Assembly (NCBI GenBank): GCA_000004695.1
Contig: CM000151.3
Coordinates: 8,320,001 to 8,384,000, forward strand
Length of the DNA stretch: 64,000 nucleotides
Source: Dictyostelium discoideum
Lineage: Eukaryota
Reading direction: 5' to 3'
How positions within the stretch are numbered: position 1 is the stretch's first letter; every line of letters starts with the position of its first letter. The translations under genes and the position numbers were made by a program. The notes beneath the pieces were generated by a model. The model searched no databases. It worked only from the letters and a program-made list of their open reading frames with translations, and was not told where the DNA came from. Below, piece by piece: positions 9,000 to 44,976 of the stretch.

Positions 9000-11264
9000 A
9001 TGCCAAAATTCTCAGATTATAGTTCATTATTAGCCCATTTAAAACAATGTGTAGAAAAAGGAAGTAAAGAACATACCAACGCTGCTATAGTAGATTATAT
9101 TAATTGCTATTCTGATTTAGAAATTGAAGAAAGTCAGGATGACAAAATAAATAATCAGTCAATCAAAAAAGAAATTGAACCAATTATTTATTCATTGATT
9201 GCCAATACATTCAAGGGAACACAAGTACTAAATACAAACAACAATGCTTCCACGTCTCCAATCACTGCAACATCAGATAATACACCACCTCCAACACCTA
9301 ACTTTACACCAGCGTCACCTGAATCAATTTTAAAAAAACCAAAGCCAATCCCATTAAGATTTAGCACCAATGGCGTAATAAATTCTTGTGAAAAAAATAC
9401 AAAGTACTATTACCTTGACCCAAGAGAATGTGAAGAATTAAAAAATAAGATGATATTAGGTCAATTTATATTGTTTTATGGAACAAGGTCATCAGGGAAG
9501 ACTACAACCTCCATTACTGTATGTGAACTTCTCAATAGTATTAAAGGTCATTTGTCTATTTTGTAAGTAACCATAACAAATTCATACCTTTTTTATGTAC
9601 AAATCGAATGACATTTATATTTTTTTTTTAAAAATTACAATCTAAAGTATCGACCTTCAAGGTCAAGTTATAAATAGTTCTTTAGATTTTTGGAAAGTGT
9701 TAATCAATTCAATTAGAATGCAATTAAGTATTGATACACCAACCACTAAAGAAATTGATGAAATGAGCATACGTCAATTAAAGGATTTAATTACCTTCAA
9801 TAATAGGAAATCGTTATTATTCAATAAAAAGGATGTCCATTTATTTATAGATGAATTTAATAATATCTCTGATGGAGGTGAAGAAACGATAACTCAAGTT
9901 TTATCGGATTTTAGGGAATGGAAAAATCAATCATCTTTATCAGCGATTAAAGTAAGTACTAATGCTAAAAAAAATGATAAATCGTTATAACCCTTTTCTA
10001 TAAATGATTAAATAATTAACCATTTTTACAAAAATAGTCTCTTATGGTCATTGGAACCTTTTCGATTTTAGATTTTAATACCTCAAATACAAATACTTCT
10101 CCATTCAATATTGCTCAAAGTTTTAAAGTTTTAAATTTTCAAAAAGAAGAGGTTGAGATATTATTTTCAAAATTTCAGAAATCTAGTGGTGTAGAAATTT
10201 ATCCACAAGTTATTGATGATATATTCATTATTACCAATGGCCATAAAGGACTTGTCAATTTAGTTGGAGAGATTATTCAAACTTCTCTTGAACCAAATAT
10301 TACAAAAAATGTATGGGATCATTTAATTAATAAGCAATTAATGATAAAATTATCGAAATACAAAACTGTAACAAGTATGACTCGTTGTTTAAACACTGGT
10401 TCAATTGATTTTTTAAAGACAATTAAAGATATTTTATTTAAATCCTACTATTCAGATACACCAATAAGCAAAACAATTGAATCGAATTACCTTGCACATG
10501 AAGGGATTTTATCTCAAGAGTAAGTATCATGATTTAGTTTATTAAACCAATATAATTTATTAATATTTTTTTTTTTAAAAAAAAAAAGTATTGAAGAAAT
10601 AAATGTTTTTAATTTTTCATCAAATATAATAAAAAATTTGGTTCTTCACCACCTCAGATCAAAAACAGCTATCGTAGGTTCTGTTCCATTTATAGGAGAC
10701 AATAAAGAACGTATTGATGTCCAACAATTAATTATTAATGCCGCCAAACAAATTAGTCCTTTAATTATAATCAACGCAATTCAAAGAAGTTTTAAAAAAT
10801 GTACCATTAGAACATCACAATTTGGACAAAAAGTTCCATGTGAATTTATTTACACAAATGAAATGTCAATTTATTTGACATTAATTATCAGTGAACGTGC
10901 AAATTCCAATTCACGTTACTATATCTCACCAAATAATAATATATTATACAATAAAAAAACATATAGACCCGATCTTGTAATTGGCAATGAATTATTGGGT
11001 CGTTATGTAATATTGGAGTTTGTCGCTACATCATCTAATGAAGACGTAAATGGACACATAGAAAGAACTCGCCTCTATATTGAAAACTATCCTGGTGCAA
11101 CTGAGGGTTGGGTAATTCATTTTACAATGGTTCGTGTCTCTAAAACATATCAATACCCAAAAGTACCAGTCAAGTATACAAAAGTTGGAATAATTCATAT
11201 TTACCATGATGAAAAATATTCAAATTTGGAATTCACCATTTATCCACCCGTAACCCAAAGTTAA
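9000..11264 (+). CDS. P-loop ATPase of archaeal/bacterial Arch_ATPase type, with a C-terminal DUF234/PD-(D/E)xK-like domain (tentative). Exons 9000..9562, 9648..9951, 10038..10519 and 10589..11264.
   Basis: Exon 1 ends in …LDPRECEELKNKMILGQFILFYGTRSSGKTTTSITVCELL… (Walker A GxRxxGKTT). The splice GTAAGT…CTAAAG (phase 2) restores …FIDLQGQ…. A Walker B-like VHLFIDEFNN is in exon 2. Introns 2 and 3 are GTAAGT…AAAATAG (phase 0) and GTAAGT…AAAAAAG (phase 2). The C-terminal exon carries YRPDLVIGNELLGRYVILEFVATS, which resembles the EIDIV…vEvK nuclease-like core of DUF234. Confidence 0.55.
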
Positions 11265-32570: not shown

Positions 32571-32577
32571 TCAAATA

Positions 32578-32608
<31 letters not shown>

Positions 32609-34094
32609 TTATATTATTATTATTATAATTATCTATAATTTCTTGTTTCTTTTGAATTTGTTCAATTTTAGATTCTAAATTATTTAATTTTAATAATAAT
32701 AAATCTAAAATTTGTTTAGTTGTTGGTGGTTTATTTTGTTTATTTCTCTCTCTTTCTAATTGTTTTTCTTTTCTTTTATTTTCTTTTTCTAGTTTTAATG
32801 CTTCTTTTTCCAATTTTAATGATTCTTTTTCTTTTTTTAATAATTCTCTTTGTTCTTTTTTTGTTAAAGAATTTATATTAGAGGGGGAAGAGGAAGAAGA
32901 AGAAGAAGAAGAAAATGATTGTTGTAATTCTAAATTTAATAAATTATTTTCTCTTTCTTTTTGTTTGTGAATTAATGATAATAATTCATCATCTTGATCA
33001 ATAATATTTTTATTATTACCATCATCTAAAGTTGAAGATAAATTATCAAATTCTTTATCGGCACCTGTAAATTTCCAACTTTTTCTCATTGAATTTGGAT
33101 AAACATAATATTTTTTAAAGAAATTATTTACATAGCTTATAGTTAGGGGATCACTTGGATAACCTGAACCAATGATGTGAGAGGTATTGGTTTCCAATTG
33201 TTTCATCCAACGATCACGTTCAACTTTTGCAATTATTGATGCAGCACCAACTGAAATGAATTTATGATCGGCTTTAGTCTCACAATAGATTTGGTAAAGT
33301 GGTGGTGGGAATTCCATTTTAAAAGGTTGAGAATACTTTTGAGTATTCATTTCAATCGAGTCAATTATAATCTTACATTGTTGATTCTTTGGTAAATTAT
33401 TAATTGAATCTTTAATTAATTGGTAGAATAGATTGGTTTCAATTTGATTCATAGTATGAAGTTCACGACGTTGATCTATCTTTTCAGAGGTGAGTATAAT
33501 AGTTTGATAGTATAATGCATGTTCAATGATAATATCGTATAGATATTCCCTTCGTTTTGGTGATAACTTTTTACTATCAGTTACTCCCATACTTTTTAAA
33601 TATTTCTCACTTTCATCATCTAATACTACACATGATATAAATAATGGTCCTAATAATGCACCTTTACCAGCTTCATCCATACTAATTGATAAAACTTCTT
33701 CAAATACTTCTAATTTATCTTTATAACTAGTTTTTGGTTGAACCATTAAATTATCAACTCCACCACCACCACCATTGATTGTTGTTGTTGCTGCTAATAT
33801 ATCATCATATGGATAATTAAATTCTTCAATAAATTTATTAATACCATAATTATTAATTTTAATTGTTTCACCATTATTTTTAATCTTAATTTGTTTTTTA
33901 TTTATAGTTGATGATGTTGATGTTGATGTTAATGTTGATGTTAATGTTAATGTTGATCTACTATTACTATAATATAATTTATTATTATTATTTTCATATA
34001 TATTATTATATATTAAATTTTGATTAAAATATATATTATTTATTTGTTTTGATAAATTTTTAAATTTTTGGTGTTTATTTATTATTGATAACAT
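32571..34094 (-). CDS. Ribonuclease H2 catalytic subunit A (RNase HII family)
   Basis: DEAGKGALLGPLFIS (the DEAGRGP catalytic motif), …DSKKLSPKRRE…, and GSGYPSDPLT (GSGYPSDP motif). It has an N-terminal extension and a C-terminal K/E-rich coiled-coil tail with polyN. No intron was needed. Confidence 0.8.
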
Positions 34095-34613: not shown

Positions 34614-36626
34614 TTATTGAATTTCCATCCATTCATCTGAAAATTTTGTAAATAATGGAAAAGTTTCAGAAATATGTTCAAAACTTGAAATATAATTATA
34701 AGTAATTGATCCTAAAGTTTCAGGACCTATATAAAGATAATGAACTGTATCATTTTCATTATATTCTTTTCTAGTAAAAATTTCAGACCAAATACTCTTA
34801 TTTGCATGTGTTTTGAAAGTATCACGTTCTGAATTTAATTTTAAAGTGATTTGAACAATAAAGAATCTAAGATAAACTGCATCCCAAATATAAAATTCAA
34901 TATCTTTATTATTTTGTAAAAAGTTATAACAATTGTTATTAATATAATTATTGATATTAATATTCTTTATATTATTATTATTACTATAATTATTAATTGT
35001 TGTTATTGAATGTGGTAACATAATGAAAGAGTAGTTCCAATCAATTGCATTATCATCGAAACAGAAATCATATAAATGCACAGTTCTAATTAAATTTATT
35101 CTTAAATGTTCAATCTTTGGAAACTCGAATTCGTTTGCTGTAAATATAGTTTTCAAATTAAAATCTTTTTCATCTAGAATTTTATTTGATAAATAACTTT
35201 TAGCAGCATTGAAACAAATATCACGAGAATAATAATTAAATCCAATTGAAAATATTTTCTCAATGAATTCATTTAAAAACGATTGATAAGCGTCACCCAA
35301 TTTCTCTTTCAATACTGTCAATGCAATTGGTGATTTTGCTCTAATAATTGAATAACCACCTTTTTTATGAAAACATGGTTCTTCTGGTAAATATTGGGTT
35401 ACCATAAATTGTGATAATATCAATATCTTTTCATTATCAATTGGTAACATCAATTCTAACAATGCCATACTTCTCTCAAACAATACCTTTTGCTCATTTG
35501 TTAATTTTTTGAATACAATTTCTAAATCCCCTTTATACTCTCTATATCTATTGGAATAATAATTATCAAATAATCCTTTACAATTATTTTTAAATTTATT
35601 TTCACATGAAATAAAATAATTTAATTCACCCCTAATAATAATAATAATAATAAAATAAAAAAATTAATATATTTTGTATTATTATTTTGTATTTATTATT
35701 ATTAAAGTTATAAATACTTACGGTATCATATTTGTAGTATAACAAATTTTTGATTGGAAATATAGATTATTTAACCATGATATATTGTTTTTAAATTTAT
35801 TTAAATTAAATGATCTCCATTCTAAAAATTCATTAAATTGGAAACCAACATTCATTGAATAAATTGTCCATGAATTTTGATTATTATTATTAACAAAATT
35901 CACCAATGGTTGATTCTTACCCTCAGAAATTGAAACAACTACCAAATCACATTTTATTAAATTTTGAATTATCTCTGGTAAATTATATGGAAATTTGGTT
36001 TTCTTACTATTGATTAATGTTGTTGTAATTAGTGTATGTTGATCAAAAAATATAAAAAAATTTAATTCTTTACTTTTATTATAAATCGAAAGATCTTTTA
36101 AAAATAATAAAATATTTTCAAATGTAAATGATTTTTTTTTTGAATTTCTCTTTTTACCACCACCACCACTATTAATTGATTTTATAAAATCCTTTTTCCA
36201 CCAATTTGATACGAATTTGTCATTATTTATTTCATAAGCAATGAAAATTGAAAATATGAATAAGAAATTGGCTTCTCTTTCATTTTCATATTTAAACCAA
36301 TTTCCATAATCTGGTATATAAACACATCTATTATTATTATTAATATTATTATTATTTGGTTTTTTGCTTTCTATGTAATTTGAACTTTCGATTTCGAATA
36401 ATCCATTTCTAATTTCGGATACAATTTGATAGATTGAATATGATTTACCAATACCACTGACACCTTTTATTAAAACATTTTTATTTTCAAATCTTTCTCT
36501 ATTTAACAGTTCTTTTATATTTGATGTTTCACTAGTATTTTGGATGAAAATATAATCACCACCACTAATACCATTTGAAACAAAATCTAAACTATTTCTT
36601 GGAAATATTGAAAATAATGGATCCAT
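34614..36626 (-). CDS. Orphan P-loop NTPase (Walker A GVSGIGKS, Walker B-like FFIFFDQ). Exons 35722..36626 and 34614..35631.
   Basis: ATG at 36626. …RERFENKNVLIKGVSGIGKSYSIYQIV… resembles the Arch_ATPase/STAND N-terminal arrangement. The intron is CC|GTAAGT…TTATTAG (phase 2, 90 bp) and gives …TNMIP-P-GELNYFISCENKF…. I recognise no other domain. Confidence 0.5.
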
Positions 36627-37516
36627 TGGGAATCTTCTTCTTGAATTTAATGTTTTATGTGTTTTATAATAATTTAATGATTCATTTAATATTTTTTCAA
36701 TATTATTTTCATTTTCTGAAAGAAAAAAAAAAAAAAAAAATTAATAATCAAAAATTAATAATTAATAATTAAAATCTAAAAATAAAAAAGGTGAGTGAAA
36801 ATAAAATATTTGTGAATTTTTTTTTTTTTCATCCAGGCCAAAAAAAAAAAATGAAAAACGAAAAATGAAAAATGTGAAAAAAAAAAAAAATTGTGATGAA
36901 GAAAAAAGAGAGAGATAGAAAAAAAAAAAAGTGAGATCTTTAAAAAGACAAACTAAAAATAAATTAATTAAAAATGAAAAAAAAAATAATCAAATAACTT
37001 ACCACCAATCACTTTGGTTTTTTTTTTAATAATCATTTTTAATAATATTTAACTTTTTATGTTCTTTTTTTATTTTATTTTTTTATTTATTTTTTTATTT
37101 TTTTATGATGGATGGTTTGTAAAATCAATTGAAAAAAAAAAAAAGAAAAATTATAAAAAAATTAAAAAAAAAAAAAAAAAATAAAAAAAGATAAAAAAAA
37201 AAAAAATTTGGTCTGAAAAATCTGCTGATTTTGATCATGTTTGTCATTCTTTGAACTCACTTTTTTTTTTTTTTGGGCTTTTTAGGGGTAATTTTTATAT
37301 TTAAATAAAAAAAAAAAAAAATTAAACCATTTAATAAAATTAAAATCACGATTTTTCAATTGAATTTATTTTTTTTTTTTTTTTTATTTTAGATTTTTAA
37401 AAATAATTATTTTATTTTATTTTTTTTTTATTTTATTTTTTTTTTTCTCTTTTTCCTTTTTTAGATTAAATAGATTTAAATTTATATTTTTATTATTTTT
37501 ATTTTTATATTAATGT

Positions 37517-37627: not shown

Positions 37628-37933
37628 ATGAAAACAATTCAAATATATATTTTAACATTATTTTTAATAATGTTATCATTTCAAACTTTACTTGTGGTTG
37701 TAGTTGCCAAAGAATTTGAAAAGTATGACTATGACAAATTAAGGGAATGTATTGCAGAATGTGAAGATACAGATTATATTTTAAATATTTGTTATCAAGG
37801 TCACCCAAAGAAAAATGTTGCCAAAGAGTTAGCCAATGTATGTCTTGATTATGCCACTGCTTATGAAAAAGGTAATCAAGATAAATACCTTTCAAAATGT
37901 TATGACCTTTGTAAACTTTATTCTCATAAATAA
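37628..37933 (+). CDS. Small secreted cysteine-rich protein (101 aa with a signal peptide)
   Basis: MKTIQIYILTLFLIMLSFQTLLVVVVA is a hydrophobic signal. Eight Cys follow, including a CIAEC…C pattern. ATG is preceded by an A-rich leader. Only this ORF in the local region is coding-like. Confidence 0.4.
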   Translation: MKTIQIYILTLFLIMLSFQTLLVVVVAKEFEKYDYDKLRECIAECEDTDYILNICYQGHPKKNVAKELANVCLDYATAYEKGNQDKYLSKCYDLCKLYSHK

Positions 37934-39556: not shown

Positions 39557-42500
39557 TTATGAGTAGTTGGTGTTATATGAGCAGTATGGTATGAAGTGTT
39601 CCGGGATGTTTATGGTCATGAGTTTCGAGTTCCAGTTGTGGCTGAATTTTTCGAGTCTTCTTTTTATTGATGCGGTCCGATTGATTGACTCTCGGTTATC
39701 AGTGCATCTTAGTTCTTGACGTAGTTGTTTTTCTACTATCTTTCTTGTTCTATCCCATTCGGCATCTCTCGCTTTTTTGATTTTATGAATTATTTGGTTC
39801 TCTGTTATTATTGTAGTGTTATCGTTGAATTTTATTTGATTTCTTCTGTACCATATCGATTCCATAATGGCTCCTATCAGATTTGATGAGAATGGTGTGA
39901 GTAGTTTTCCGAGAACTTTTTCGCTCCATGGACCGTGGTAAGTGTTGTTGGAGTCTTTACAGACCTTTTGATAGATTGAGTCGATATTCTGTTTTATTGA
40001 TTTGCATTCGAAGAAGATGTGCATAGACGATTCTTCTTCTTTACATGAGTGGCAATTCTCCCCATGGTGTTTTGGAAGTGCCTTGAGTAGATATCTCCAT
40101 GCTAAGTCTCTTCCTTTGATAGTTGTGATTGATCTGGCTTCTCTAAATGGTAGAATTGGGTGATTAATGTTCTTTTGAATCAGTTTTTGACCTGTTGTTG
40201 GCTGGTGTTTGTTCCATCCCTTGTATTTGATATCCATCATGTTTCTATAGATTACTTTTAATTTTTGTTTGTTTTCGTATTTGGGTTTGACTTGGTTTAG
40301 TTTGAGAGTTATTCGCTCTCTTGGGTGGTGCAACAACTTCCAGGCTTTCCAGCATTTGATATGAATCCTTGATAGTGAGTTTTCTTTTTCCGACTTCCAG
40401 ACTTCCATATGTGGAGGGCAGTTCTGGTCGTCTTTTTCTCTGAGGTATTGTTCGTATATCCATGCTTTCTGGGCATTGGATCTGGTTGCCATATTCCAGA
40501 GTTCCAGGCCTCCAATTTCATAGTCTCTTCTGCTCCTTTCTTTTGAGATAGCCCACCTGTCCCCTTTGAATAACATGTTGGCATTAACGTTCTCCAGTTT
40601 CTTTATGTCATTTATTTCGTTGATGTATAGTTGGAATGTTAGTTGGGACAGGAGGTATGATTTGAGGATTGTGATTCTACCTTTTAGCGTTGATGACACG
40701 CTCGAGTAGCATTTTGTGAGGTTTTCCAGTTTGTTCACCGTATCATCTACTTTGCTTATTACACCTTTGCGGTTGAAGAAAAAGCCAAGATATCTTTCTT
40801 CTTCTTTCGCCCCAATTGTCTTATATTTGGTCTTTATCTTTGGGTTTTTAGTGATGCATACACATTTATTATCGTTTATTTTTGCTGCTGTGGCTTGGCA
40901 AAATTTTATAACTTTCATATCCATTTTATCTGCGTCATCTATGTTACTGGCTAGTGTGACTGTGTCGTCTGCATATTGTCCAATCTTCATCGAATTGTTC
41001 TGATTGAGTTTTATGCCTATTATGGTATTGTCTTTTCTTATTGATGTTGATAAGCATTCACATACTATAGCGAAGAGAGTTGGTGAAATTGGGTCGCCCT
41101 GTTTTGTACCTCTTCCTGCTCTGAAGGATTCAGAGAGTTGTCCATTTACCATGACCCTTATGTTGGTGTTCGTTAACATGCTTAGTATTGTGTTTGTTAT
41201 TTTCCGAGGGAACTTTAGATGGTTTAGAGTCCTTATTAACGCTTTATGAGATATTGAATCGAAGGCTTTTTCGAAGTCATAAAAGGTGATTATCGTGTTT
41301 CTATCACTCTTTTCCATTGCTAAATCCAAAGCTATAATGTTGTTGTGGAGTAGCCTTCCTGGTATAAAACCGTTCTGGTACTTTGAGATTATGTTTGGCA
41401 GGATTTTTAGTATTCTATTGTTGATTATTTTTGAGTAGATTTTGTAGTCTACGTTGAGTAACGTTATTGGTCTTCTGTTTGAGATTTCCAAGACATCCCC
41501 TTTACCTTTGTATATTGATGTAAGGATACCGTTCTTGAATTCTGTTGGAATTTCATTGTTTAAAAAGAAGTTGAATAGTTCTGTGAGGATTGGAATTAGT
41601 TTGTGTTGGTGGATTTTATAGAATGAAGATGTTATTCCATCTTCTCCTGGTGATTTACCTTCTGCTATCTTTTCTATTGCTAGCTTAACCTCATATTCTT
41701 CGATTCTGTCTTCCATCTCTGTTAATTTTTTTTTATCTATTGGTGGGTTCCAGGTGCTTAGAAGTTCTGTATGTGTTTCTTGGTCGCATTCTTTCTCTTT
41801 GAAGAGTGTCTCGTAATATTTTCTGAAGCAATCTGTTATTTCTTTTTGTTCTGTTTCGATTTCTCCATTGGATGGGTTCTTTATTCTGTGAATCTGGGAG
41901 CCCGAGTCTCTTTTTTTAAGAATAGATGTAAGGAGATTTGATGCTATTTCTTTATTGTTGATGTAGTTGATTGAGCTTTTGATCATTCTGTCTATTCTTT
42001 CTTCTTCTTGAAGTATTGTTATTTCGTTCGATATTGTTTCTTTTTCATATTTGTTTTTTGTTTTTGTGTGTTCATTTGCTAGATTTGATAGCGTTTTTTT
42101 TCTCTCTAGTATTCTTTTCTTTTCTGTTGTAATGCATTGTTTTTTTATTTTTTTTTTGAACTTAATCCAGTATTCCGTTATGTTAAGGTTTTTTCTTTTG
42201 GTTTCCTGGTAGTGGTCGATTATTTTTTCTATCTTTTTTATTGTTTTATCTTCTTTAATTATTATTGAGTTCATTTTCCATAGGGGTGATTTGTATATTT
42301 TTGTGAAATTTGGTATTTTGAAATCCATCACTACTATGTTATGGTCTGATTTGTTTATTTTATCTATTATCTTGTACGAGTGATTGAGTTGGTGCATCTT
42401 TGTTGATAAGAATGTTCTATCGATTAGTTTATCTTTGAAGGTTGTTTTAGTTGTTGAATTTGGTAGTATTTCGGTGAGTCCTACTTCCATCATTAGGAAT

Positions 42501-42988
42501 TCTATTGTTTCATTTTCTGTGAATTTTCTCTTATCGGATGATCCATCTTTGAACTTGATTTTTGCATATTTGTTGATGTTAAAGTCACCAGTAACTATGT
42601 CTGCCTGTTCTAGATCTTCAAGGGAAATATTGTTTGAAAACCATCCTTTTCTTCTGTCATATGAGGCTGGTGCATAGATGCAAATTATGTTGATTTCCAT
42701 ATTGTTTAGAATTGCAGTAAATTTTAAGATTCTGCCTTCTTTTTCTTCCAAGTTTTTAATTTCTATTTGTTCTAGGTGATTTATTGCCATTACTCCTTTT
42801 CCTCTTGCTTCTTTTCCTTTTCCTCCTGTTGAGTAATGGTTTTTGATTTGCGCTAGATTTTGATCCTTTTTTAGATTTGTTTCTGTTAGTATTGATATAT
42901 CAGGTTTTATTAGGTTAATTGTATTTTTTGTCTGATTCATGCTTTTGATTGTTGAGCAACCTTGGCAATTCCAGGTCATTATTTTTAT

Positions 42989-42991
<3 letters not shown>
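39557..42991 (-). CDS. TRE5-type ORF2: apurinic-like endonuclease, reverse transcriptase and a C-terminal Cys-rich domain
   Basis: 1144-aa uninterrupted ORF. MIKIMTWNCQGC… is the EEP endonuclease start. RT motifs are ITLLNVDYKIYSKI, FYDFEKAFDSISH and YADDTV. The C-terminus has HHGENCHSCKEEESSMHIFFECK. Codon usage is less AT-biased than host genes. Confidence 0.85.
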
Positions 42992-43037
<46 letters not shown>

Positions 43038-43052
43038 TTTTTTTTTTTTTTT

Positions 43053-43090
<38 letters not shown>

Positions 43091-43096
<6 letters not shown>

Positions 43097-44446
43097 AAAT
43101 GAGACAGATGGAAGTATGTCTTGGAGTACTTTGGGCAATTTGTCTCTTAGTGCTGCTTCCATTAGATCTGATTCTTCCTTTGTTATTTTAGTTGGAGTTT
43201 TGTAAGGTGTTGATATTTCTTGGTGATTAGTTGTTGGGTTTGGAGATGAGTTGGATCTTTTTCTTTTTACTGTCTCTGGGGTTGCTGGAGATTCTGGATT
43301 TTGGATAGGTGACATTGTTTGTCTTTTTTTGATTGAGGCTAACCTTGGGGTTTCCTTCTTTTTTTGGTTATTTATTTTTTCTTCAAACATTCTGTTCTCT
43401 TCTTCATTTTCGAACATCTTTCTTACCACTTCTAATGCTTCTTCATCTTCAGTTAACTCCATTTTCCTTTTCTCTTTGCTGTCAACACTATATGTTACTG
43501 TTATTGGTGGGACACGAAGTACTTTTCTCTTTTCAATGTTGTTTATTGTGTTTGTCGTTTCTGTCGTTGTAGTTGCTCTAATTGTTGTGGGTTTTTTATT
43601 TTCAATTTCGTTTTCCTTTACTTTTTCGTTTTTGCTCTTGTCTTTGATGTTGTCATTTTTGATTTCTTTATTATTTTCTTTTCTGTTTTCTATTTTGTTT
43701 TTGTTGTTATTTTTTGATTCGCTAGTGTTTTTATGATTGGATTCTTCTTTTGATTTTATGTTTATTCTTGTGTTTTCCTTTATCTCGGGGTTTGGTAGTT
43801 CCGTGATTTTTGAATTTTCTGAGATTTCGTCTTCGATTTCCTTATTTGTTTTTCTTTGATTTTTTGTTTCTTCTGTTGTAGTGAGGAATAGTATTGTTAT
43901 GTGTTTACAATGTATTAGCTGGTCTTTGTGCTCTGGACTGATAATTGAGTTGAATGAGTGTATTATCAGGTTTTCACCTAAATTATCTAATTTGATTATT
44001 TCCAGTCCTTCTTCATGCAATGTTTTTTCTACTATGTCCATTGATTTTTCCCAGTTGAATGTTTTGAAGATCTTTTTTGGTTTTATTATTGCTCTGTGAA
44101 CTCCTTTTAGTACTCCGTTGAAAACGTTAGAGTACTTGATTACTTGAGTTCTGCAGTCAGTTAGGATTTTGAATTTATTCTTACTTATTATTATCTTATC
44201 ATCTCCTTGTAAATGAATTTCCAATTCTGCTTTTAAGTTGTTGGAAATCTCATCTGGGATATTGATCATGAATTTATATTGTTTTAGTTCAATTTGAGTG
44301 TGGTATATTGCTTCGCTTATTTTATCAAGTGTTCTGTACGTATTTTTTAAATATTTGAACTTTGTTCTGAGTTCATTTGATTTCTTGATTTTATCTGCCA
44401 ATGTTTCTGTTGATTCTGTCATTATTGTATTTGCCAATTTATTCAT
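43091..44446 (-). CDS. TRE5-type ORF1 (451 aa, basic, K/E-rich)
   Basis: Intact ORF immediately 5' of ORF2 on the same strand. The two are separated by about 99 nt that are almost pure A on the minus strand. Confidence 0.7.
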
Positions 44447-44903: not shown

Positions 44904-44976
44904 GGGGATGTAGCTCAGATGGTAGAGCGCTCGCTTAGCATGCGAGAGGTAAAGGGATCGATACCCTTCTTCTCCA
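44904..44976 (+). tRNA. tRNA-Ala (anticodon AGC)
   Basis: A 73-nt cloverleaf by hand. Acceptor GGGGATG with the G3:U70 Ala identity pair. D-arm GCTCAGATGGTAGAGC (A box). Anticodon stem CTCGC/GCGAG with loop TTAGCAT. T-arm AAGGG-ATCGATA-CCCTT (B box). Near-identical to human tRNA-Ala-AGC. Followed by TTTTT. Confidence 0.85.

Follow-up and report, generated by a model that had tools for sequence, protein, structure and literature searches.

DDB_G0277707 of Dictyostelium discoideum, a probable header-less member of the Crinkler-type NTPase-DAB protein family

The commonest C-terminus of Crinkler (CRN) effectors joins a nucleoside triphosphatase (NTPase) to a helix-turn-helix and a restriction endonuclease (REase), according to PMC5289972 and PMC11064341, which report on Zhang et al. 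2016. In the same account, the CR NTPase-REase pair is derived from transposon-linked prokaryotic genes, and the REase is described as the toxic part with the NTPase as its regulator. CRN homologues are known in amoebozoans and chlorophytes (PMC12957317), and DXX-DAB is a recognised CRN subfamily of Phytophthora and Batrachochytrium (PMC3161006). This text is about a gene of Dictyostelium discoideum, DDB_G0277707, which lies on the minus strand of a 64,000-nucleotide stretch of DNA (contig CM000151.3 of assembly GCA_000004695.1, forward-strand positions 8,320,001 to 8,384,000). That whole stretch is called the window, and all coordinates below refer to it. Our preferred reading, to which we give a probability of roughly 0.6, is that the gene encodes a highly derived, header-less and likely intracellular member of a eukaryotic NTPase-DAB (Crinkler-type) family.

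The closest described systems are the DXX(-DXZ)-DAB Crinklers of oomycetes and chytrids, represented here by PcinCRN95 of P. cinnamomi, which have the same domain order as DDB_G0277707: a P-loop NTPase followed by a domain with a P...D...Q-I-T signature. The ratio of nonsynonymous to synonymous substitution rates (dN/dS) is also similar, about 0.37 in DDB_G0277707 and 0.40 as given for oomycete DXX-DAB (PMC3161006). The differences are several. The Walker B motif is D-Q-H in DDB_G0277707 but D-G-W in PcinCRN95, and the Dictyostelium protein has neither header nor signal peptide. Unlike these Crinklers, its gene is single-copy and syntenic and is not part of an expanded effector family, and many family-conserved residues are substituted in the Dictyostelium clade.

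The protein family and its C-terminal domain

The original prediction, made from window positions 34614-36626, described the product as an orphan P-loop NTPase. A word-indexed search with the query recovered one orthologue each from D. cf. discoideum, D. citrinum and D. dimigraforme (87-68% identity). An exhaustive hidden Markov model (HMM) search with the four-orthologue alignment added six distant relatives with E values between 1.7e-12 and 2.7e-4, which belong to Cavenderia fasciculata and Acytostelium subglobosum or come from metagenome contigs and from a transcriptome of Dracoamoeba/Stereomyxa. A profile made from the distant relatives reached at least 76 proteins, and the orphan status does not hold. 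A word-indexed search with a profile containing the Dictyostelium sequences was dominated by low-complexity words and gave the four orthologues only. The family is spread over Dictyostelia, another amoebozoan and uncultured GC-rich eukaryotes. Further dictyostelid members are DFA_06496, which UniRef labels as a 'Crinkler family protein', DFA_06757 and Tieghemostelium DLAC_07094, and Cavenderia has at least three paralogues, two of them sharing one contig. Many other members come from contigs of uncultured eukaryotes, where their genes are GC-rich and lack introns; one such contig also carries a Prp31 gene. Paralogues within D. discoideum, which the original prediction had proposed looking for, were found neither in the exhaustive HMM search nor in the window, and the gene is single-copy. 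Sequence comparison places DDB_G0277707 in this family with high confidence.

Three sets of conserved motifs run through the family. In the N-terminal half they are P..P...R.RF, M.R, GPQGVGKSHSLY (Walker A), NRVxYIPDCxxW and hhVFDQHN (Walker B); in the middle, FP....E, VISASANN, GF..xEF..W and T..IP.EL; and in the last 200 residues, D.KGR.LE.Y, hhhP, NYP.VD...W, Q-I/V-T, H, W and LW..P. The N-terminal domains vary, with SAM and others represented. Pfam showed SAM domains in one or two of the 60 relatives, and three dictyostelid proteins (P0005, P0010 and P0021) start with a SAM domain. GC-rich metagenome relatives (P0030, P0032, P0039, P0051 and others) start with a domain of about 100 amino acids, …VWVKR.DV.GARY…LVTLRLVK…WLLAFV, which looks ubiquitin-like or Crinkler-header-like by eye and has no Pfam match.

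The link to Crinklers comes from PcinCRN95, whose sequence was taken from supplements 9 and 12 of PMC11064341 and which is annotated as DXX/DXZ (P-loop NTPase) plus DAB. Its DAB domain (...WIKPEKWNQGGYDAIMVDKKKRHVQMIQITSAHTH...) scored 14.7 bits against the HMM of the family's C-terminal domain and ranked first of 4,003 sequences, a set made up of three real sequences and 4,000 shuffles, the best shuffle reaching 8.3 bits. The P, D and QIT positions line up, as does the next strand, and the P...D...QIT signature is common to both. Profile comparison with hhalign gave the same pairing for the C-terminal domain and the DAB domain (E 0.017). For the N-terminal part of PcinCRN95, hhalign aligned the family from the helix before Walker A to the second strand (E 1.2e-5, probability 81%); an extension of this alignment past the confident 59 columns was discarded as unreliable. 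We conclude with moderate confidence that the C-terminal domain is homologous to the DAB domain of Crinkler effectors. The C-terminal module of Crinklers, DXX/DXZ (NTPase) plus DAB, is thus found in DDB_G0277707, with a single CRN sequence as the basis. The Crinkler header (ubiquitin-like, with LxLFLAK and HVLVxxP) is not found in it, and the query has no Pfam Crinkler match. Just 36 lysine-rich residues (MIIKKKTKVIGENEN...) stand ahead of the conserved module, without a hydrophobic signal sequence.

The DAB-like domain, putatively restriction-endonuclease-like, is delimited by the structural model, the family motifs and the HMM to residues 476-681 (34617..35234, minus strand). The original prediction had found nothing recognisable in the roughly 450 residues after the Walker motifs; they appear instead to hold a helical domain, a winged helix and this conserved DAB-homologous domain. 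The predicted model gives a helix at 479-497, strands at 545-550, 587-593 and 598-604, a helix at 619-630 and a strand at 639-645. These last 200 or so amino acids thus show an αβββαβ order plus extra elements, which in the model is the core order of PD-(D/E)xK enzymes (alpha-beta-beta-beta-alpha-beta), and carry the signature D…QxT…H. Q603-I-T605 (34845..34853, minus strand) lies in the third core strand, with Q in 48/48 relatives and T in 46/48. It occupies the place of (D/E)xK in PD-(D/E)xK enzymes, and an acidic position (D in the family, E588 here) starts the second core strand. An asparagine-rich low-complexity insert, placed by the alignment and the model at residues 551-586 (34902..35009, minus strand), sits in a loop of this domain. 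It is present in D. discoideum and D. cf. discoideum only, absent from D. citrinum and D. dimigraforme, and has a predicted local distance difference test score (pLDDT) below 50 at 554-561 and 575-584. The insert is a young low-complexity expansion inside a folded domain.

By sequence, the D. discoideum protein is the most derived member of the family. Of the 81 positions at which the other members show 80% conservation or more, it retains 42, while other members retain a median of 94.5% and at the lowest 61%. All P-loop, Walker B and sensor-1 positions scored as family-conserved are kept, and the retained residues of the nucleotide-binding core are G96, G99, G101, K102, S103, D236, Q237, H238, S273, S275, N279, P254 and E259. 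Losses include R53, R72, R250 and N278, the last two now K; the C-terminal domain has lost G483, and has K in place of E487 and E in place of both D588 and H611. At the family's E, D, QxT and H positions the protein therefore reads K487, E588, Q603-I-T605 and E611. This pattern fits a kept nucleotide switch together with an altered or disabled C-terminal activity.

A number of results weigh against the proposed membership in a Crinkler-type family and against a nuclease-like C-terminus. By HMMER, the NTPase part of PcinCRN95 scored only 2.1 bits and came ninth of the 4,003, which is not significant, and the NTPase match by hhalign could reflect general P-loop similarity. The Crinkler link is drawn from one CRN sequence with a modest DAB score. 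The Pfam Crinkler header matched no relative, DFA_06496 included, nor the N-termini of seven relatives. The E / D / (D/E)xK catalytic set of restriction endonucleases is not seen: the family has E (in helix 1), D, Q-x-T and H, without a lysine. A sequence-profile search of the Protein Data Bank (PDB) with the C-terminal domain gave no matches, Pfam gave it two isolated weak ones, Mrr_cat_2 (0.11) and MutH (0.13), and no known nuclease was among the fold matches of the whole model, whose listings were filled by the NTPase. A restriction-endonuclease fold for this domain is accordingly a tentative, model-based suggestion held with low confidence. Finally, no functional, localisation or expression-condition data were found for DDB_G0277707. 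A separate match of one member's C-terminal domain to NCBIfam PPOX_FMN_cyano (E 0.00099) was taken to be unrelated to a nuclease domain.

The NTPase domain and what it resembles

The NTPase module spans residues ~37-475 (35235..36641, minus strand, across intron 2). Its parts are a conserved N-terminal extension, nucleotide-binding and helical domains, and a winged-helix-like region that has a beta hairpin at residues 419-441. The gene encodes ...RERFENKNVLIKGVSGIGKSYSIYQIV..., which contains the Walker A motif or P-loop, GVSGIGKS (G96-S103; 36441..36464, minus strand). G96, G99, G101 and K102 are present in 58/58 aligned relatives, and S103 in 57/58. The Walker B strand, FFIFFDQH (F231-H238; 36036..36059, minus strand), lies 134 residues past the P-loop lysine and coincides with model strand 230-237; D236 and Q237 occur in 60/60 relatives and H238 in 57/60. 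The original prediction had seen this pair with a spacing of about 130 residues, and both motifs are indeed present in the expressed frame at that distance. Q237 stands where a catalytic glutamate, or second acidic residue, is usual in AAA+ and STAND proteins. A sensor-1-like strand and loop, SISEGKN (S273-N279; 35913..35933, minus strand; family consensus SASANN), follows on model strand 269-275, with S273 and N279 in 60/60 relatives and S275 in 59/60. The motifs are above chance: they are located in a domain that folds as a P-loop NTPase in the model (strand 91-96, helix 102-114, strand 230-237) and are invariant in 58-60 relatives.

The structure was predicted with AlphaFold (AF2) from the 60-relative alignment, at a pLDDT of 80.5 and a predicted template modelling score (pTM) of 0.84; from the four Dictyostelium orthologues alone, the pLDDT was 28.7. 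Foldseek searches of the PDB matched the model to CED-4, Cdc6/Orc1, the Pyrococcus Walker-type ATPase PAB2304, the Dark apoptosome and Avs4, as well as to mS29, SAMD9, SSO1545, ORC subunits and NLRC4 (E 1e-5 to 1e-3). The fold-match scores were 15.6 for mS29/DAP3, 13.5 for PAB2304, 12.7, 12.0 and 11.7 for TnsC, 12.1 for TIR-NLR, 11.6 for CED-4, 10.7 for MuB and about 10 for ORC/Cdc6. The query reached no Pfam gathering score, AAA_14 alone coming to 17.8 bits (cut-off 27), and had only sub-threshold P-loop matches in NCBIfam. Among the 60 relatives, Pfam gave AAA_16 in 31, nSTAND_NTPase5 in 24, ATPase_2 in 14, DAP3 in 14, Bac_DnaA in 10 and nSTAND3 in 7, all under or near threshold; the best E values were 2.6e-5 for AAA_16, 7.2e-8 for nSTAND_NTPase5 and 1.8e-6 for ATPase_2. 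These matches indicate similarity at the level of the class, and not membership of ATPase_2, AAA_16 or nSTAND_NTPase5. Because the fold matches and the Pfam matches of the relatives agree, residues ~37-475 are assigned to the STAND or ORC/Cdc6-type AAA+ class, with nucleotide-binding, helical and winged-helix parts and a likeness to CED-4, NLR, Cdc6 and Arch_ATPase proteins. Confidence in the predicted NTPase fold is high, and the earlier guess of an Arch_ATPase/STAND protein was correct at this level. The model also matched A0A3G5AHI5 in BFVD, a 513-amino-acid protein of the giant virus Sylvanvirus sp., over 541 aligned columns (E 1.6e-4, template modelling (TM) scores 0.32/0.40), a likeness which may go beyond the NTPase core.

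With the STAND/Arch_ATPase proteins (CED-4/Apaf-1/Dark, NLRs, Avs, PAB2304 and SSO1545), DDB_G0277707 has in common the nucleotide-binding, helical and winged-helix fold parts. The family's T..IP.EL motif takes the position that 'GxP' has in STAND proteins, and relatives come up below threshold against AAA_16, nSTAND_NTPase5 and ATPase_2. Unlike these proteins, it has no sensor repeats, and its second Walker B residue is an invariant glutamine. Human SAMD9/SAMD9L is alike by its STAND-type NTPase fold (Foldseek E 2e-4), though weakly (TM 0.11-0.18), and some family members also start with a SAM domain, whereas DDB_G0277707 has neither SAM nor the other SAMD9 domains.

The same matches bear on another explanation, that DDB_G0277707 is an intracellular immune or surveillance protein of STAND type, a functional analogue of bacterial Avs or human SAMD9 and not what is left of a secreted effector. 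NTP-dependent oligomerisation would then be set off by a ligand of pathogen or mobile-element origin and would bring a C-terminal nuclease effector into action. The Foldseek matches to Avs4, SAMD9, NLRC4 and the CED-4/Dark apoptosome speak for it, as do the SAMD9-like SAM domain at the start of some members, the multiple Cavenderia paralogues (at least three, two on one contig) and an evolutionary rate that is the fastest among the neighbouring genes. However, neither the model nor the Pfam scan of the query shows C-terminal TPR, LRR or WD40 sensor repeats after the NTPase, the gene is single-copy in D. discoideum, and the clade has substitutions at putative catalytic positions of the C-terminal domain. 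There are also no matches to PADLOC defence models. On this balance the explanation seems unlikely.

A further reading is an ordinary housekeeping P-loop protein, such as a paralogue of mS29/DAP3 or an ORC/Cdc6-type factor; in its favour, 14/60 relatives have a sub-threshold Pfam DAP3 match. Yet identity to mS29/DAP3 is 12-15% and no Pfam gathering score is reached, and mS29 lacks a DAB-like domain and is unlike the family in distribution and evolutionary rate. The family is patchy in its taxonomic spread where a universal single-copy one would be looked for, its N-terminal domains vary (SAM, others), it has an extra conserved C-terminal domain in common with a Crinkler, and DDB_G0277707 diverges faster than all its housekeeping neighbours. 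This reading is extremely improbable.

Another reading is a domesticated transposon module, in which a TnsC/MuB-like target-selecting AAA+ ATPase and a TnsA-like nuclease would have become a host gene. TnsA has a Q-x-K variant of the endonuclease motif, which resembles the QxT of DDB_G0277707, and the origin of the CR NTPase-REase pair from transposon-linked prokaryotic genes, as ascribed to Zhang et al. in PMC5289972, points the same way. On the other hand, TnsC was matched less well than mS29 and the Arch_ATPase proteins, the gene is single-copy and syntenic in three further Dictyostelium species among ordinary neighbours, and no transposase or repeat copies were seen in the window. The idea also overlaps with membership in an NTPase-DAB family, as a deeper origin of that same family; as an explanation in its own right, it is very unlikely.

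Gene structure, divergence and neighbouring genes

DDB_G0277707 is a real, expressed and fast-evolving gene, and its structure is established with high confidence. The 681-amino-acid translated product is identical to XP_642512.1 / Q54ZA3 of strain AX4, annotated 'hypothetical protein DDB_G0277707'; neither DDB_G0277707 nor Q54ZA3 was found mentioned in the main text of the literature. The gene was originally predicted as two exons for 640 amino acids with a start at 36626. The intron of that model, at 35632-35721, was right, but its exon number and length were not: the open frame runs further upstream and is joined by a 287-nucleotide GT-AG intron to a further exon, for three exons and 681 amino acids in all.

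All parts of the gene lie on the minus strand. Exon 1 (37003..37070) has a coding part of 34 nucleotides (37036-37003), which runs from M1 (ATG at 37036-37034) to G11 and adds one base of codon 12; the 5' untranslated region reaches at least 37070. Intron 1 (36716..37002, GTAAGT...CAG) is followed by exon 2 (35722..36715, 994 nucleotides), which codes for residues 12-343, ending with the first two bases of codon 343. These residues make up the conserved N-terminal extension and the nucleotide-binding domain and lead into the helical domain. Intron 2 (35632..35721, 90 nucleotides, GTAAGT...TAG) was placed from the DNA and the RNA alignment. Its boundary (35722/35631) interrupts the codon of the nearly invariant P343 within the conserved T..IP.EL motif. 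Exon 3 (34614..35631, 1,018 nucleotides including the stop) codes for residues 343-681, with the TAA stop codon at 34614-34616.

An intron-free Logan RNA contig of 2,084 nucleotides (L001, run SRR24091722) carries the reading frame uninterrupted and aligns to the window in three blocks: bases 1-68 to 37070-37003 at 100%, with an in-frame join and intron 1 missing from the RNA; bases 68-1063 to 36716-35721 at 99.9%; and bases 1063-2084 to 35631-34610 at 100%. Because these blocks match the three-exon model, expression of the Walker A frame and its splicing are confirmed, and the doubt about its expression that came with the original prediction is settled in favour of the gene, even though the gene model itself had to be corrected. 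Residue 293 (about 35838-35840, minus strand) is Ser in the AX4 window and Leu in L001 and in P0001; being one mismatch in 996 aligned bases, this would be a strain polymorphism or an assembly error. A pseudogene or non-coding reading was ruled out by the RNA contig, the synteny and a dN/dS below 1.

In D. citrinum and D. dimigraforme the orthologue lies directly upstream of an RNase HII gene, as in the window. A rough Nei-Gojobori estimate gave dN of about 0.14-0.18, dS of about 0.35-0.52 and dN/dS of 0.35-0.39. Wrong-frame open reading frames (ORFs) in the same run gave 0.9-2.3, so DDB_G0277707 is under purifying selection. Its identity to D. citrinum is 70% as against 83-99% for about ten syntenic neighbours, which makes it the most diverged of them.

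The conserved downstream neighbour is an RNase HII-type gene (32571-34094, minus strand) with a DEAGKGALLGP motif and long low-complexity N- and C-terminal tails; Pfam RNase_HII is found in its D. citrinum orthologue. Just upstream of DDB_G0277707, a 101-amino-acid ORF (37628-37933, plus strand) has no Pfam match. It is 90% identical in D. citrinum and D. dimigraforme, has a dN/dS of about 0.13 and is called as a gene in both, and these points together indicate a conserved small protein gene. Further on is a non-LTR (long terminal repeat) retrotransposon (39557-44446, minus strand) with an ORF2 of 1,144 amino acids (Pfam RVT_1, E 5e-37) and an ORF1 of 451 amino acids. A tRNA-Ala(AGC) stands at 44904-44976 (plus strand), about 450 bp from the 5' end of the retrotransposon, which is the layout of the tRNA-targeted TRE5-type elements of Dictyostelium. 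D. citrinum and D. dimigraforme lack this block of about 8 kb at the syntenic position.

DDB_G0277707 had also been tied to another gene of the window, at 9000-11264 (plus strand), as a second member of one ATPase class within 25 kb and as part of a possible lineage-specific family of STAND-like signalling or defence proteins. The other gene was rebuilt with four exons (9000-9562, 9648-9951, 10038-10519 and 10589-11264), and its 674-amino-acid product is identical to DDB_G0277693 / Q54ZB2. The two are alike as hypothetical proteins of about 680 amino acids with an ORC/STAND-class P-loop domain that can be aligned from Walker A to Walker B. DDB_G0277693 belongs to a different family, however, with Pfam AAA_35 (PF14516) above threshold (E 2.4e-7), and AAA_35 is known mainly from bacteria. 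The Pfam scan of DDB_G0277707 gave no AAA_35 match. BLASTP between the two proteins gave E = 4, and with the family profile hhalign found nothing to align beyond the stretch from Walker A to Walker B (E 0.027, probability 1.8%). By profile comparison there is no relationship between the C-terminal halves (E 0.24). In its last 200 amino acids, where Pfam is empty, DDB_G0277693 has a PD...L-E-F-V stretch reminiscent of PD-(D/E)xK without the lysine.

A common entry motif, R-E-x-F-x(4-6)-hhhhG, does not survive this comparison: the R-E stands 19 residues before the P-loop glycine in DDB_G0277693 and 12 in DDB_G0277707, the profile alignment leaves the R-E motifs unpaired, and the wider family does not conserve RERF and has an 'M-x-R' further upstream in its consensus. 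A tandem duplication was ruled out by the BLASTP and hhalign results and the unrelated C-terminal halves. Two P-loop genes 25 kb apart would be expected by chance in a gene-dense genome. By these comparisons the two proteins have a broad class in common, but not a family, and nothing links them functionally. What stands of the proposed lineage-specific family is a patchy family with conflict- or effector-like relatives, but not one that takes in the 9000-11264 gene as orphan kin.

Proposed mechanism and meaning

If DDB_G0277707 is an NTPase-DAB protein, its NTPase would serve as a nucleotide-dependent switch. On binding NTP it would self-associate or bind nucleic acid, in the manner of STAND, ORC and TnsC proteins, and in this state it would control the action of the C-terminal domain on nucleic acid. 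Walker B mutants in which glutamate is replaced by glutamine bind nucleotide and are slow in hydrolysis. By likeness to these, the glutamine of D-Q-H suggests slow hydrolysis, a long-lived NTP-bound state and switch-like behaviour. Because the protein has no signal peptide and no translocation header, it most likely works within the amoeba itself rather than being delivered to other cells. The changes E487K, D588E and H611E in the D. discoideum clade suggest that the ancestral, presumably nucleolytic activity was probably altered or lost, and that the protein was probably retained for a derived role after this C-terminal change. Any role in conflict or defence, like any biological role, is proposed with low confidence.

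A broader scenario can be drawn for the whole family. Header-less NTPase-DAB proteins may keep watch over nucleic acid inside the cells of amoebae and algae as an NTP-switched system, a eukaryotic counterpart to STAND immunity of the Avs or SAMD9 type, from which the secreted Crinklers of oomycetes and chytrids would be derived, weaponised forms; in the D. discoideum clade the module would have been repurposed, with an altered active site, for a regulatory or sensor role. We consider this scenario speculative and distinctly unlikely.

The analysis gives a domain-level identity to a protein so far annotated as hypothetical, and links it to the Crinkler NTPase-DAB module, whose biochemical activity remains unproven. 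With its genetic tractability and a single copy that lacks a header, Dictyostelium is suited to testing the role of this module inside a cell. The nucleotide switch, nucleic-acid binding or cleavage, and a role against bacteria, viruses or retroelements are all testable there, and mutagenesis could be aimed directly at the invariant D-Q-H of Walker B and at the Q-x-T motif.

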